Shown here: piece by piece, positions 21,001-24,000 of the stretch
Layout: each line of letters begins with the position of its first letter
Numbering within the stretch: the stretch's first letter is position 1
Program-made: the position numbers
Source: Escherichia coli
GTDB taxonomy: Bacteria > Pseudomonadota > Gammaproteobacteria > Enterobacterales > Enterobacteriaceae
Length of the DNA stretch: 64,000 nucleotides
Assembly: GCF_050320075.1 (NCBI RefSeq)
Contig: NZ_CP190018.1
Strand: one strand, 5' to 3'

Positions 21001-24000
21001 TCCGGTTTTATTCCGGCTGAACTCTGCTGCATGAGAATGCGGTGACGTTCACTTTCACACTGAACGATTTACCGGCCTCTTTTTCTTTTGAAAACAGCCT
21101 GACGCATTCAGGCTCAGTCATCAGTCATCGGTGTGTTCTGAAAACGCACCCAGGATACCGGTGCACCACCAGGCTTCAGGATGGTGGCTTCAATCCGGTA
21201 TTTATGCGGTGTGGTGTCTGTTGTTGCTGTCATTCATGGCTCCTGTTGCCGGTTTCCGGTCCCGGAAAAATAGGCGACATCAGCAACAAGGGGAAAAACG
21301 CGATGTCGCCTGAAAGGTACTGGTGCAGCGGTGCGTTGTACGGACGCAGGTCCGCACAACCGGAAATACACGGGATGATTCGGTCAGTGTATTTTCGTGT
21401 TGTGCGCCTGTACTGATACGGCAGGGTGTGATGAGTGTTACCTGTGGCTGCAGGCGCGGCACGTCACTCATAACGTAGCATTCTGTTTCCTCCTCAGCCC
21501 GGCTTCAGGGCGTTGCCGCAATACCCGATTGTTAAAGAGCCTTACCGGCATGGTGTCCGGTGTCACCGCGCGGATAACGATACGGCGGTGTCTGAAGGGA
21601 TGATGCTGCGGCGCTCTGCACATGGCGACGATTAATTCTTTTTGTGTTTCTGAAAATTTATTGCCGGGAAATTTCTGGTGTGACAGGGTGAATTAATTCT
21701 GGTCAGCGACGCTCCTGAGAAGGCAGAGTGCGCTGACATTTCGTGAACGGAGGAATGCCATGTCCCTGAATCCCACCGATGAACAGTCAGCCATCATTCA
21801 CTGGCAGGGGGAAAAACTGGTGGTGAATGCCTTTGCCGGTACAGGCAAAACCAGCACACTGGTGCAGTTCGCCGCAGCCTGCCCTGAGAGCCGGATGCTG
21901 TATCTGGCCTATAACCGCGCGATTCGTGATGAGGCGGAGCGCCGGTTTCCCTTTAATGTGGAGTGCAAAACCTCCCATCAGCTGGCGTATTCGCGGTTCG
22001 GAAAGCATTTCCGGCATCGTCTGGTGCCGGGGCTGTCAGTGACGGATGTAGCGAGAAAACTGAACACCCGCTACTGGACGCTTGCCCGTGTTGCCATGAC
22101 CGCGCTGAATCAGTTCATCTGTTCGGCGGACGTGGCGCCCGGAATGCAGCATATGCCGCCTCCCGACGAGATGAAGGGCATGTCGCCACAGGATGCGCTG
22201 CGTGCCGTGCAGATCCTCTGGCATGAAATGAGCAATCCGGATGGCAATTTTCCGGTCACTCACGACACCTATCTGAAGCTCTATCAGCTTTCCTCACCGG
22301 ATCTGTCACGCAGGTGGGATACGATCCTTTTTGATGAGGCCCAGGATGCGAATCCGGTGACGTCCGCACTGGTGCTGGGGCAGCGGTGCAGGGTGGTACT
22401 GGTTGGCGACCGTTACCAGCAGATTTATCGTTTTCGTGGTGCCAGCGATGCACTGTCGCATCCGGCACTGAACGGGGCGGACCGTCTCTGGCTGACGCAA
22501 AGTTTTCGTTTTGGTCCTGCCGTGGCCGGGGTGGCCAGCCAGTTACTGAAGCGTGCCGGCGAGAGCCGTGAGGTGACCGGCAGGGGCGGGGATGATGAAG
22601 TGCTGACGGCAGGTGAAATGCGTGCGCGCGTGAAGGCAGGGAAGATGACCGGTCACAGGGCGATACTGAGCCGGACGGTGGCCGGTGTGATTGGCACCGC
22701 ACTGATGGCGGCAATGCGTGGCAGGAAGGTTTACTGGGTGGGGGGCATTGAAGGCTACAGAACGGAGGCACTGGAAGATCTTTACTGGTTTCAGATGGAT
22801 ATGCCGGAGCGGATGCACAGTGACAGACTGCGGAAGGACTACCGGGGTTTTGACGAGTACCGTCATATTGCGAAGGTGACGAAGGATGTGGAAATGAATC
22901 AGTCCATTCGTCTGCTGGAGCTGTGCTTTCCGCTGCCGAAGAAACTCGAACTTCTCAGAAAGCACACCGTCACGAATGAACAGGAGGCGGATATCACGGT
23001 CTCAACGGCACACCGCAGTAAGGGACTGGAGTGGTCACTGGTGGTACTCGATGATGATTTTCAGGATATCACCGACCCGCTGATAAGCGAGCAGGAGCGG
23101 CGGGATGAAACCAATCTGCTCTATGTGGCGGTCACCCGGGCGCGCAGAACGCTGGTTCTCAATGAACTCATGCAGCAGCTGACGGAAGCTGCCGGCGATG
23201 GTGGTGCACCCGGAAACGCGCCGGTGCAGGGGAAGGAAGACGATGGCGTGGAGGGAGAGGATGTTTAAGCGGTTCAGACGTATGCTGCCCGGCACAAAGG
23301 GCACGGAGCCTGGCGTGGTCGCGCCGGTGATACCGGCAGGGTTTTATGCGCCGCTCACGGCAGAGGCACTGTTATCACCAGAGCACAGGGAGCTGAGGCT
23401 CAGGCAGGTCTGGGATAACAATCCGATGCCCCGTGATGTATACGACAGGATGTGCCTTGAACCACTCAGCCGGCTGCTGCTGAACACCCAGAACGTCCCG
23501 GCAACACGGGAAGGACGGTGGTCCCGTGCCGGTGGATTTGGTGATCTGACGGTACTGTACACCACGTATGCCGTTCGTCTGGCAAGAGGGTACATGTTTC
23601 CACCGGATGCGACCCCGGAAGACCAGGCGGCTCAGGCCGCAGTCTGGCATGCGGTGATTTTCTGGTCAGCGCTGTTTTACCACCTGCCCCTGCTGGCGCA
23701 CCTTGAGGGGGAACTGCTGAGTGGGCGGGGCTGGCAGCCAGGGATTTCTGTGCCTGACGAACCTTTCCGTTTCCGGTTCAGGAAGACGGCGCCGCAGGGT
23801 ACGGAAGCGCAACAACTTGCGGCCCTGACTGCCGGCACGCTGTTACCGGACGGCGCAACGGCCTGGCTTGTGACGGCGCCGGGCGCACTGCAGAATCTGG
23901 CCGGGGCGCTCTGGCATCAGCATCCCGGGATGGCGCTGATTCGTGATGTGCTGCAGGAAGCGGCAAGGCAGACAGAGAGTCCGCTAAATACCTGCGCTGT

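Follow-up and report, generated by a model that had tools for sequence, protein, structure and literature searches.

A split DUF1187 gene and a predicted BoxA-bearing leader upstream of the pil operon in an Escherichia coli integrative element

Introduction

The type IVB pilus operon of an Escherichia coli integrative element raises the question of what precedes pilL, its first pilus gene, and whether a short open reading frame (ORF) found there encodes a leader peptide. The window, meaning the whole stretch of DNA that was analysed, covers 64,000 nucleotides of contig NZ_CP190018.1 (assembly GCF_050320075.1). A preliminary description had noted a 39-codon ORF with a strong Shine-Dalgarno (SD) sequence and an inverted repeat further upstream, and had proposed a small regulator or leader peptide of the pil operon.

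The operon headed by pilL is roughly 13 kb long and extends up to the shufflon and rci. RefSeq annotates PilL/TcpQ, PilM and PilN, and the Pfam domains over the operon are TcpQ, PilM, Secretin, PilO, T2SSE, T2SSF, PilS, Shufflon_N and Phage_integrase. The region adjoins the uvrD-traI-integrase module of the element, with uvrD divergent from the leader. The preferred reading, given a probability of about 0.7, is that the locus combines a DUF1187 gene split by a frameshift with a hairpin, H3, that acts as a terminator or attenuator in a leader carrying a BoxA and a short upstream ORF (uORF). The features are listed in Table 1.

Table 1. Features of the pil leader region, in order along the minus strand
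Feature	Position	Strand	Remarks
Small hairpin ACCGG-ACACCATG-CCGGT	21544..21561	-	3 nt upstream of BoxA; modest support
BoxA GCTCTTTAACAA	21529..21540	-	Exact match to the gamma-proteobacterial consensus GYTCTTTAANA
SD-like GAGGAGG (21495-21489) and 5-codon uORF	21464..21495	-	7-nt spacer; leader-peptide candidate
Conserved block GTGACGTGCCGCGCCTGCAGCCACAGGTAA	21438..21467	-	30 nt; first bases hold the uORF stop codon
H1 hairpin	21354..21405	-	17 pairs, one bulge, one mismatch
H2 hairpin GTTGTGCGGAC-CTGC-GTCCGTACAAC	21335..21360	-	Predicted in the minimum free energy (MFE) fold
H3 hairpin	21265..21311	-	Arms 21311-21302 / 21281-21272, then U-run TATTTTT 21271-21265; about 30 nt before the SD
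SD AGGAG of the DUF1187 gene	21240..21244	-	6 nt before the ATG
39-codon ORF	21114..21233	-	5' fragment of the frameshifted DUF1187 gene; RefSeq WP_238998741.1 in an identical E. coli locus
Tandem duplication GATGACT-GATGACT	21116..21129	-	7 bp; frameshifts the DUF1187 gene
37-codon ORF	21008..21121	-	3' fragment of the same gene; RefSeq WP_191647965.1 in the identical locus
pilL (TcpQ-domain protein)	20230..20955	-	Next gene, 52 nt downstream

Identity of the 39-codon ORF

The elements first reported for the ORF are all present in the sequence. On the minus strand, the ATG at 21233-21231 follows AGGAG (21244-21240) across the 6-nt spacer CCATGA, and a TGA at 21116-21114 closes a frame with the translation MTATTDTTPHKYRIEATILKPGGAPVSWVRFQNTPMTDD. 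This is a genuine coding sequence in the same orientation as pilL, and the sister island keeps its ATG, its frame and its SD (AGGAG, 8-nt spacer); in one metagenomic copy (L030) the SD reads ACGAG. Its omission from the ORF track, put down to its shortness, reflects merely a length cut-off, and the ORF is listed when the minimum is set to 30 aa.

The ORF is the first half of a 72-codon DUF1187 gene that has been split by a 7-bp duplication. The frame shifts after codon 37, and the second GATGACT copy gives the upstream ORF its stop and the downstream ORF its ATG (overlap ATGACTGA), the resulting 39-aa and 37-aa ORFs overlapping by 8 nt. An alignment with Br_112, for which RefSeq annotates one 72-aa DUF1187 gene, has a 7-column gap as its sole difference. 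In the MDR_56 locus, which is 100% identical to the window, RefSeq has two DUF1187 CDSs at exactly the coordinates of the two fragments; the RefSeq CDS L001:2068-2187 corresponds to window positions 21233-21114.

Profile matches divide the domain in the same way. Against PF06688 (61 positions), the 39-aa ORF aligns to positions 1-27 (E 2.8e-8, 34.4 bits), the 37-aa ORF to positions 25-60 (E 4.7e-12, 46.5 bits) and the intact ortholog to positions 1-60 (E 2.4e-24, 85.8 bits), all three above the gathering score of 20.7 bits. With NCBIfam NF007283/PRK09750 the intact ortholog reaches 95.8 bits, above the curated cut-off of 92, and the 39-aa fragment 44.1 bits, below it. What had been proposed as a leader peptide or small regulator is rather the front of a longer domain whose remainder lies in the 37-codon ORF. 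No single polypeptide of the window spans the whole domain of about 61 positions, which is split between two frames; a single-polypeptide domain is present in 28 other genomes.

The intact 72-codon gene was counted in 28 of the 36 complete E. coli genomes that carry the island and the split allele in the other 8. All metagenomic island copies have the intact gene, and among 11 distinct island sequences the GATGACT duplication occurs solely in the sequence shared by the window and L001. In all likelihood the duplication has inactivated a dispensable accessory gene. That its function is lost completely is an assumption, and the split allele persists in its 8 genomes across several hosts and countries. 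Taken by itself the ORF matters little, being a frameshifted and already annotated copy of a small gene. In practice, wherever a short ORF preceded by a good SD stops at a tandem repeat, it is worth looking for its continuation in another frame.

The DUF1187 family

Both fragments match the profile of the DUF1187 family (Pfam PF06688, NCBIfam NF007283/PRK09750, PHROG 5753), from which the gene of the window differs in being split by the 7-bp duplication. Homologs occur in lambdoid phages, IncI2-type plasmids and other islands. Some are found without pil genes, in the phage nin region, in the Rac prophage and near fimbrial operons, a spread that speaks against a leader peptide specific to pil. 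Intact members are 55-80 aa long. An exhaustive phmmer search gave 55 representative clusters in which K20, G22 and W28 are invariant, with the consensus MYKITATIxKPGGxPVxWxRYS...CEK...KExG...V...FxC. Compared with the rest of the family, the island proteins are longer by 10-12 poorly conserved residues at the N terminus.

Comparison with the sister island gives pS 0.74, pN 0.21 and a dN/dS of about 0.07, substitution estimates which show the protein to be under purifying selection. The refuting condition named at the outset, a reading frame not conserved in homologous islands, thus does not count against coding, but what is conserved is a frame of 72-76 codons and not one of 39. A dN/dS this low and homologs in unrelated contexts are not the marks of an attenuator leader peptide, in which the act of translation counts more than the product and the amino acids can usually change freely.

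The AF2 model (pLDDT 76.7) has a beta-beta-alpha-beta order. The break falls between beta2 and the helix, and according to the model it would part the beta-hairpin from the helix and third strand. A PDB sequence search with the protein returned no match. A word-index homolog search with the 72-aa protein gave 4 near-identical matches only, the index being weak for short proteins, and two DNA scans of viral contigs gave first one unrelated match and then none. The literature searched contains no paper that names DUF1187 and no description of its function or of the leader, its coverage being incomplete and novelty not proven thereby.

Architecture of the predicted leader

The predicted leader that contains H3 is structured, unannotated and roughly 300 nt long, and it begins with an rRNA-type BoxA. 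Its RNA folds with a z of -2.4 over 336 nt. The hairpin described at first is real and conserved, the region is probably a regulatory leader as proposed, and it is this leader, unannotated in more than 500 sequenced plasmids, that is more useful than the flagged ORF.

The stretch that matches the gamma-proteobacterial BoxA consensus (PMC5725501) is GCTCTTTAACA at 21540-21530, the sole match with at most 1 mismatch in the 64 kb. Where the window has the small hairpin by BoxA, the sister island has ACCGTT-CTTCGT-AACGGT.

The uORF downstream of BoxA (21481-21464) reads ATG CTA CGT TAT GAG TGA, or MLRYE and a stop. In every lineage [AG]AGGAGG stands 43-47 nt past the start of BoxA and is followed at 4-9 nt by a start codon; the ORF thus opened has 5-18 codons and ends at a conserved TGA or at a TAG 4 nt earlier. 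The peptide sequence is not conserved. A variable peptide with a constant SD, start and stop position fits an attenuator leader peptide, and the 5-codon uORF, about 250 nt upstream of the 39-codon ORF, may be the better candidate for such a role. In the predicted fold the SD/uORF segment is complementary to BoxA.

After the conserved block the RNA is rich in C and poor in G, with a C/G ratio of 1.4-4.2 over the next 80 nt in all lineages. H1 and H2 are alternative pairings, because the 5' arm of H2 overlaps the 3' arm of H1. Two pairs of H1 have both partners replaced from one island type to the other (U-A to C-G and A-U to G-C), a covariation that amounts to two events between two lineages only. 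In H1 91% of cells are paired; the whole H1+H3 structure with its partners slid gives 26-44%. In the sister island an 11-nt insertion at the tip of H2 forms an extra CTGCA/TGCAG helix, as read by eye.

RNAalifold found no compensatory pairs in the nearly invariant core from BoxA to the block. An Rfam scan of positions 20000-22500 with E up to 10 gave two chance-level matches (E 3.4 and 7), far below the gathering scores, and a consensus promoter scan of the window found nothing upstream of BoxA.

The H3 hairpin

The inverted repeat, originally given as 9 bp around a 20-nt loop, is real and has that spacing; its arms are one pair longer. AGGCGACATC and GATGTCGCCT (21272-21281 and 21302-21311) form 10 perfect pairs, 6 of them G-C, with 20 nt between, and 3 further pairs are added in the fold, which is followed by the tail UAUUUUU. 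The predicted free energy is -19.3 kcal/mol (z = -5.2), and 0 of 200 shuffles fold as well. Perfect inverted repeats of at least 10 bp with loops of 3-30 nt number 38 in the window when counted by register (about 14 distinct loci by manual grouping), compared with a mean of about 2.1 register counts in first-order Markov simulations. Because such repeats are frequent in the window, one of them alone is unremarkable. H3 is taken as real because its arms are conserved in the diverged sister island.

The two islands are about 60% identical across the leader alignment, and the H3 arms are identical between them while the loop differs in length and sequence. The sister-island H3 has 12 bp, a loop of 8 and TTTTTT, with a free energy of -20.1 kcal/mol and z about -5, and the terminator scanner calls it terminator-like. 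A U-run follows the hairpin in both island types. Between them, 10 of the 11 pairs never vary and one goes from G-U to A-U; the invariance of the arms gives no covariation and leaves room for a sequence-specific rather than a structural role.

Such a role could be the binding of a dimeric regulator of a pil promoter, with the repeat as its operator in double-stranded DNA. The perfect half-sites, invariant in both island types and lying within a divergent regulatory region, would suit this, and pilL2 of PAPI-1 is controlled by DNA-binding proteins bound upstream (PMC8565334). An operator is nevertheless improbable. The half-sites are 20 nt apart in one island type and 14 nt in the other, and the 6-bp difference would therefore place the contacts of a rigid dimer on different helical faces. 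Each island type also lengthens the stem with different extra pairs, and a T-run stands directly after the repeat in both.

As a terminator, H3 resembles Rho-independent examples in its G+C-rich stem of 10-12 bp, its free energy near -20 kcal/mol and the 5-6 U directly after it. It departs from them in the interrupted U-run of the window (UAUUUUU) and in its loop. The scanner expects 3-8 nt, as in the sister island, and in the window the MFE fold leaves a loop of 13 nt, with 20 nt separating the perfect arms. This is longer than is usual in intrinsic terminators, and H3 of the window is not called by the scanner. No antiterminator hairpin directly competing with H3 was found, and a classical attenuation switch is not demonstrated. 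From its stem and U-run, H3 is predicted to act as an intrinsic terminator, or as an attenuator, within the 5' leader that precedes the DUF1187-pilL...pilV operon.

Distribution of the leader core

The 15+8 nt core of the conserved block was known beforehand from the ICE and IncI2 lineages and served as the search pattern that recovered the other lineages, giving 34 metagenome loci in 9 clusters. BoxA occurs once and at a fixed distance from the block in 44 of 44 leader-bearing sequences (9 clusters), always in the same orientation relative to the downstream operon, and is absent from 22 other loci. Its only differences between lineages fall on the N position and on the base that follows the consensus.

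In IncI2-type plasmids the BoxA/uORF/block core also lies upstream of the transfer operon, between it and repA. The IncI2 leader is present in 532 plasmids, with nothing annotated on it there, and has a promoter-like site, TTGACA-N18-CACAAT, 103 nt upstream of BoxA. A blastn search of the region against plasmids at 1e-5 gave no DNA match, and the relationship surfaced only when individual loci were compared by local blastn at the sensitive word size of 7. A genome scan with a 3-sequence alignment returned a single locus, an IncI2-like MAG contig. Among the uvrD-homolog loci was one more ICE-B-type island copy (L020). Five others have cargo genes upstream, not pil or DUF1187; they added no new lineages and serve as negative controls for BoxA.

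The distribution bears on whether the stretch of about 275 nt from BoxA to H3 is instead a discrete small RNA, possibly with a dual function through its 5-codon ORF, the pil operon having its own promoter downstream. The terminator-like end ahead of the SD and the structured fold would be expected of such an RNA, and a promoter-like site overlaps the interval from H3 to DUF1187 in the sister island (L004:2946-2975). The reading is unlikely all the same. The IncI2-type lineages have the same core with no terminator-like site before the first gene, there is no Rfam family match, and BoxA is known from the leaders of long transcripts, namely rRNA, CRISPR arrays and suhB (PMC5725501, PMC7665894).

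Proposed regulation

The leader is best read as a putative Nus-factor/attenuator device that gates the pil operon. Transcription would start between the divergent uvrD and BoxA. The nascent RNA would first present the small hairpin and BoxA, loading NusB/S10 and the Nus complex, and then the strongly ribosome-bound 5-codon uORF, whose stop lies within the conserved block. The C-rich, G-poor stretch, the alternative hairpins H1 and H2 and the terminator H3 would follow. The 13-kb pilus operon would be transcribed only by polymerases that get past this terminator, which could happen through Nus modification, uORF translation or both. The rrn-type Nus complex mainly counters Rho-dependent, not intrinsic, termination. 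For this reason BoxA alone may not explain read-through of H3.

A wider proposal is that BoxA, the BoxA-complementary SD, the mini-uORF with its block and the C-rich tract form a new cis-regulatory module which gates conjugative pilus and type IV secretion (T4SS) operons via the host Nus complex. It is put forward tentatively, at somewhat less than even odds. The module would be shared by a family of E. coli integrative elements and the IncI2 plasmids that spread mcr-1, with the islands adding an intrinsic terminator. The Nus complex, possibly together with uORF translation, would decide whether RNA polymerase enters the operon; with the gate open, DUF1187 would be the first protein to be produced.

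If the BoxA is functional, host Nus factors help to switch on the conjugative pilus of the island and the transfer genes of IncI2 plasmids, a plasmid type described as carrying the colistin-resistance gene mcr-1 more often than any other vector (PMC8053102). The BoxA targets, so far a short list of rRNA, suhB and CRISPR arrays, would then gain new members, and there would be a testable handle on how such elements keep costly transfer genes silent.

Comparison with known systems

The closest parallels are the BoxA/Nus leaders of rrn, suhB and CRISPR arrays (Baniulyte et al. 2017, PMC5725501; Stringer et al. 2020, PMC7665894). As there, an exact BoxA match on the presumed sense strand opens what is predicted to be the long leader of a long operon, and it varies between lineages only at a degenerate position. 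The present putative Nus leaders differ in standing on mobile elements at the head of pilus/T4SS operons, in the pairing of BoxA with a strong SD and uORF, and in the terminator-like hairpin that follows in the islands.

The order of BoxA, stem-loop and terminator ahead of the genes recalls the lambda nut sites with tL1/tR1. The island stem-loop GCCCTGAAGCCGGGC has the same first 9 nt as nutL boxB, GCCCTGAAGAAGGGC, a likeness that serves as a lead only. Lambda boxB has a 5-bp stem and a GNRA-like pentaloop and is bound by an N protein, whereas the island stem has 4 bp and a loop of 7 nt and is not conserved in the plasmid lineages. With these dimensions, and with no N-like gene identified, assignment as a lambda-type nut site was rejected.

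Control by NusG paralogs of the TraB/ActX/RfaH type answers the same need, the passage of RNA polymerase along an extended, horizontally acquired pilus or transfer operon. In IncI1, IncK and Serratia plasmids a NusG-family gene lies upstream of the homologous pilL (PMC7819879), so that antitermination at the head of such an operon has a precedent in the IncI1/IncK pil operons. No NusG-family gene is listed in the 3.9-kb RefSeq stretch round the MDR_56 leader or in the IncI2 locus L005, and the BoxA consensus is absent from the NusG-carrying plasmids examined. The device described here appears, from its gene content and motifs, to consist of a cis-acting RNA and host Nus factors and not of an element-encoded paralog.

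The operon itself resembles the type IVB pilus operons of R64, SPI-7 and PAPI-1 in its PilL (TcpQ), PilM, PilN secretin, PilO, ATPase, PilR and PilS, in PilV with shufflon and rci, and in the adjoining uvrD-traI-integrase module. For pil2 of PAPI-1, regulation has been described at the promoter (regulators TprA, NdpA2 and MvaT), with no leader, BoxA or small first gene (PMC8565334); the present operon differs in having a DUF1187 gene and a structured leader before pilL.

Remaining alternatives

The split gene might still work, either by reinitiation at the ATG 21121-21119 after the TGA 21116-21114, giving a two-piece protein, or as a switch in which the 7-bp unit is phase-variable. The duplication does create an in-frame ATG that overlaps the stop, a typical coupling arrangement; both pieces keep significant Pfam matches with no further decay; and identity to the Br_112 intact allele in all but the indel means that the change is very recent or reversible. 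Against this, the second ATG has no SD, and the 60-residue domain is broken between its beta-hairpin and its helix. Slippage is rare when a 7-bp unit is present in two copies, and no three-copy allele was seen among the genomes and island sequences compared. A working split gene is accordingly thought quite unlikely.

It is very doubtful that H1-H3 are part of an oriT or another single-stranded DNA signal for the adjacent TraI relaxase and UvrD helicase. The region does adjoin the uvrD-traI-integrase module, oriT regions carry conserved inverted repeats, and the compensatory changes in H1 suit DNA hairpins as well as RNA. Seven homologous uvrD-traI loci with other neighbours, however, have no similarity to this intergenic sequence and no BoxA. 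The core is shared with IncI2-type plasmids, its orientation follows the downstream operon and not the relaxase gene, and the T-run after H3 and the SD elements suggest RNA.

It is hardly credible that the 39-codon ORF functions by itself, as a small protein or as a cis-acting pil leader peptide: it has a strong SD at ideal spacing and an open frame, PGAP calls a CDS, and the allele does not differ among the 8 complete genomes, of human and chicken isolates, that carry it, but it covers only profile positions 1-27 of 61 in a family whose intact members have 55-80 aa, the remaining domain follows in the next frame directly past the duplication, the gene is intact in 28 genomes and all metagenomic copies, the family occurs in pil-less contexts (nin region, Rac prophage, fimbrial operons), and its amino-acid sequence is under purifying selection, unlike that of most leader peptides.

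A candidate terminator after the 39-codon ORF (AGCCTGA...TCAGGCT+GTTTT, 21096-21114) was rejected, the stretch being coding (EPECVRLF) in the intact gene. At the other end of the ORF, a second ATG (21237-21235), only 2 nt from the SD, opens an out-of-frame ORF of 11 codons that is lacking in the sister island.

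The 39-codon ORF upstream of pilL

The ORF upstream of pilL, proposed in the preliminary description as a small regulator or leader peptide of the pil operon, is present as claimed, with AGGAG, a 6-nt spacer, ATG and TGA. It is almost certainly the 5′ piece of a recently frameshifted DUF1187 gene. Several complete E. coli chromosomes match the 901 bases around it at 100% identity. In one identical locus, MDR_56, the RefSeq annotation has a pair of neighbouring CDSs named 'DUF1187 family protein', which are exactly the 39-aa and 37-aa ORFs of the window, and in Br_112 a single 72-aa DUF1187 gene is found at the corresponding place. 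The sole difference in the alignment is the heptamer GATGACT, which occurs twice in the window and MDR_56 and once in Br_112. The two ORFs divide the Pfam profile between them, and NCBIfam PRK09750 agrees with this split. Among complete E. coli genomes with a full match, the split allele is present in 8 and the intact gene in 28, and the gene is whole in each of three distinct metagenomic copies of the same island type. It is from the duplication, the division of the profile and the intact copies elsewhere that the ORF is identified as a fragment of this kind, which is already known and annotated. The earlier interpretation stands in part: the hairpin is conserved and terminator-like, but the ORF belongs to an ordinary, frameshifted gene.

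A 124-aa GTG ORF lies antisense to the DUF1187 gene and the putative terminator hairpin. Since RefSeq leaves it unannotated where the locus is identical, this is probably a shadow ORF.

Features of the pil leader region and of related loci (window positions unless a locus is named)
Feature	Position	Strand	Details
39-codon ORF	21114..21233	minus	AGGAG 21244-21240, ATG 21233-21231, TGA 21116-21114; PF06688 profile 1-27 of 61, E 2.8e-8
37-aa ORF	21008..21121		PF06688 profile 25-60 of 61, E 4.7e-12
Intact ortholog			PF06688 profile 1-60 of 61, E 2.4e-24
GATGACT copies	21129-21123, 21122-21116
DUF1187 codons 2-4	21221-21229		CAGCAACAA
H3 loop and 3′ side	21281-21289		UUGUUGCUG
Hairpin H3 arms	21272-21281, 21302-21311		AGGCGACATC / GATGTCGCCT
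Hairpin H2	21360-21335		shares bases with 3′ arm of H1; H3 next
Hairpin H1	21405-21354		two compensatory pair changes from one island type to the other (U-A to C-G, A-U to G-C)
124-aa GTG ORF	21042..21416	plus
C-rich, G-poor stretch			after 30-nt block; C/G 2.1
30-nt conserved block			after uORF start; includes uORF stop
uORF, 5 codons	21464-21481		downstream of BoxA; SD-like GAGGAGG, 7-nt spacer; MLRYE-stop (window), MLRRE-stop (sister island)
BoxA	21540-21529		GCTCTTTAACAA
AGAATTAAT copies	21692-21700, 21631-21639	minus	61 nt apart
Second BoxA match	27786-27796	plus	GTTCTTTAAAA; within 731-aa ORF 27346..29541
Inverted-repeat sets	8966-10322		three sets, common core GTGCCAATCCGGT
Shufflon_N (PilV) gene	10758..11792
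Phage_integrase-family gene	7305..8744
Sister-island 146-aa ORF	L020:1283-1723; L003/L004 ~3210-3700
IncI2 leader (example)	L005:5100-5300
NusG-family genes	L063:2119-2601, L064:344-850, L065:222-755		IncI1, IncK, Serratia MPF_I; 1-3 kb upstream of pilL homologue

The leader and its sister island

A second, diverged island type, the sister island, occurs in another 18 E. coli genomes. Its synteny is the same: traI-uvrD points away from DUF1187, which is followed by pilL-pilM-pilN. Within the 526-bp uvrD-DUF1187 intergenic region, the block 21433-21547 is ~90% identical between the two types, while the flanking genes are only ~70-75% identical. This block opens with GCTCTTTAACAA, which has a single match at ≤1 mismatch in the 64-kb window and agrees at every position with the BoxA consensus of gamma-proteobacteria, GYTCTTTAANA (PMC5725501). 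The uORF, the conserved block, the C-rich stretch and three hairpins follow. For H1, 91% of cells are paired, and for H1 and H3 together 94%, against 26-44% with the partners slid. The sister-island H2 carries an insertion at its tip which forms an extra helix.

The second exact match to the BoxA consensus is probably fortuitous, as chance alone would give ~0.2 per window. The two AGAATTAAT copies, located in the promoter region between the divergent uvrD and pil genes, may be regulator binding sites, since both are largely kept in the sister island.

Hairpin H3

The inverted repeat reported previously was confirmed with 20 nt between its arms, its stem being 10 bp rather than 9 bp. The fold has an energy of -19.3 kcal/mol (z = -5.2). 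Perfect inverted repeats of this size give 38 register counts in the window (~14 distinct loci as grouped by the authors) versus a mean of ~2 in simulated sequence; such repeats are not rare here, and the case for H3 therefore rests on comparison across sequences. Identity between the sister island and the window is ~60% across the leader alignment and ~69% when the region is aligned locally by blastn. Even so, neither arm has changed, whereas the loop differs in sequence and length (14 nt between arms in the sister island). In an alignment of seven sequences, 10 of 11 pairs never vary and one changes from G-U to A-U. The T-run directly after the hairpin is TATTTTT or TGTTTTT in the window's island type and TTTTTT in the sister island. 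The sister version, with a 12-bp stem, an 8-nt loop and -20.1 kcal/mol, is called terminator-like by a consensus scanner; the same scanner does not call the longer-looped window version.

H3 is accordingly placed, with a probability of about 0.55, as an intrinsic terminator or attenuator in a transcribed leader, ~30 nt before the SD of DUF1187. The same symmetry would suit an operator for a dimeric DNA-binding regulator, a role that is unlikely: the half-site spacing differs by 6 bp between island types, and a rigid dimer would fit such a shift poorly.

The loop and 3′ side of H3 (UUGUUGCUG) are perfectly complementary to DUF1187 codons 2-4 (CAGCAACAA). Such pairing could occlude the translation start of DUF1187 in the full-length mRNA; by eye, it is not conserved in the sister island.

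The leader in plasmids and metagenomes

IncI2-type plasmids share the conserved block, as found by sensitive blastn against fetched loci. A 23-base core pattern matched 34 metagenome loci, giving 44 sequences in 9 clusters together with the earlier loci. In all 44 the BoxA consensus precedes the block at a constant spacing (73 nt in islands, 109-113 nt in plasmids), and its sequence varies at no place other than the degenerate N and immediately past the consensus; it is absent from 22 of 22 fetched leader-less loci (an estimated 130 kb or so in total). In every distinct core variant, [AG]AGGAGG follows the BoxA start at 43-47 nt, and the uORF, 5-18 codons long, ends at the conserved TGA or 4 nt earlier. 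The peptide itself changes between variants, even through compensating frameshifts. In the RNAalifold prediction BoxA and the SD pair with each other, and the uORF stop falls within a hairpin loop; all these pairs are invariant and therefore offer no covariation evidence, and the core as a whole scarcely varies among the 9 clusters.

All plasmid lineages carry the element between repA and the transfer operon, oriented with the latter, with or without CaiF/GrlA and DUF1187 genes. The IncI2 leader is found in 532 PLSDB plasmids, including R721 (NC_002525.1) and many mcr-1 carriers; 518 copies are ≥99% identical and it has no annotated feature in any of the 532. A TTGACA-N18-CACAAT site lies 103 nt upstream of its BoxA.

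Proposed mechanism and known systems

The proposed mechanism starts from direct observations: the leader anatomy, the conservation and co-occurrence of its parts, two compensatory pairs in H1 and the terminator-like thermodynamics of H3. RNA polymerase would read the region as the 5′ leader of the 13-kb pil operon, whose gene content was confirmed. BoxA would recruit NusB/S10 and the Nus complex, a Rho-sensitive step may arise from translation of the uORF together with the C-rich tract, and H3 would stop unmodified polymerases. That this BoxA is functional is judged to have even or slightly better than even odds. The weak points are that a promoter scan of the window found no consensus promoter upstream of BoxA, that no hairpin competing with H3 was found, and that Rho-dependent termination is the main target of the rrn-type Nus complex.

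The homologous pil operons of IncI1, IncK and Serratia plasmids have no BoxA consensus, and instead carry a NusG-family antitermination gene upstream (cf. PMC7819879). This is a different antitermination device, and the analogy supports the antitermination idea for the BoxA leader. The pil2 genes of PAPI-1 are regulated at the promoter by TprA, NdpA2 and MvaT, without such a leader (PMC8565334). An Rfam scan matched the leader to no family. As far as a limited literature search shows, it is an undescribed member of two known kinds, the BoxA leader and the intrinsic attenuator. This BoxA-containing leader, with its conserved terminator-like hairpin, deserves experimental follow-up.

The DUF1187 family

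The sister-island gene has 76 codons; its coding DNA is ~70% identical to the window, a representative protein of this type (P0005) is 67% identical, and its SD and start codon align. Comparison of the two gave pS 0.74, pN 0.21 and dN/dS ~0.07, a strong synonymous bias (pS 0.58 and pN 0.18 for the first 37 codons only). An exhaustive HMMER search of 1.84 billion representatives returned 55 clusters, in which K20, G22 and W28 are invariant and Y12, I14, C41 and G52 nearly so. The AlphaFold model (pLDDT 76.7) has strands at 12-19, 26-32 and 60-68 and a helix at 38-47; on this model, the frameshift after residue 37 is predicted to divide the domain between β-hairpin and helix. A sequence search of the PDB found no relative, a limited literature search found no mention of DUF1187, and PHROGs lists it as of unknown function.

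In lambdoid prophages the gene lies in the nin region, with replication genes on one side and ninB on the other; it also occurs in Rac-like phages adjoining ralR, beside chaperone-usher fimbrial operons, and in 548 conjugative plasmids, mostly IncI2. The transfer region of IncI2 plasmids is headed by a regulator gene of the CaiF/GrlA family, whose end overlaps the DUF1187 start. As truncated variants exist and some plasmid lineages with the same leader lack the gene, DUF1187 is evidently dispensable, and on this ground the split allele is read as a tolerated loss-of-function mutation. A two-piece protein formed from both ORFs through translational coupling at ATGACTGA is unlikely.

In the sister island, an extra 146-aa ORF without a Pfam match lies between the DUF1187 gene and pilL; it is absent from the window.

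Island surroundings

The GTGCCAATCCGGT repeats are flanked by the Shufflon_N (PilV) and Phage_integrase-family genes, and the region looks like a pilV shufflon with a rci-type recombinase, judging from this arrangement. Homologous uvrD-traI-integrase modules occur in E. coli, Salmonella and Klebsiella (L021-L027) with no pil operon and with unrelated cargo upstream of uvrD, including YadA-like adhesin, invasin, pga, ArdC and AAA ATPase genes. Hence either the uvrD side is a cargo hot spot or these loci are remnants of decayed islands.
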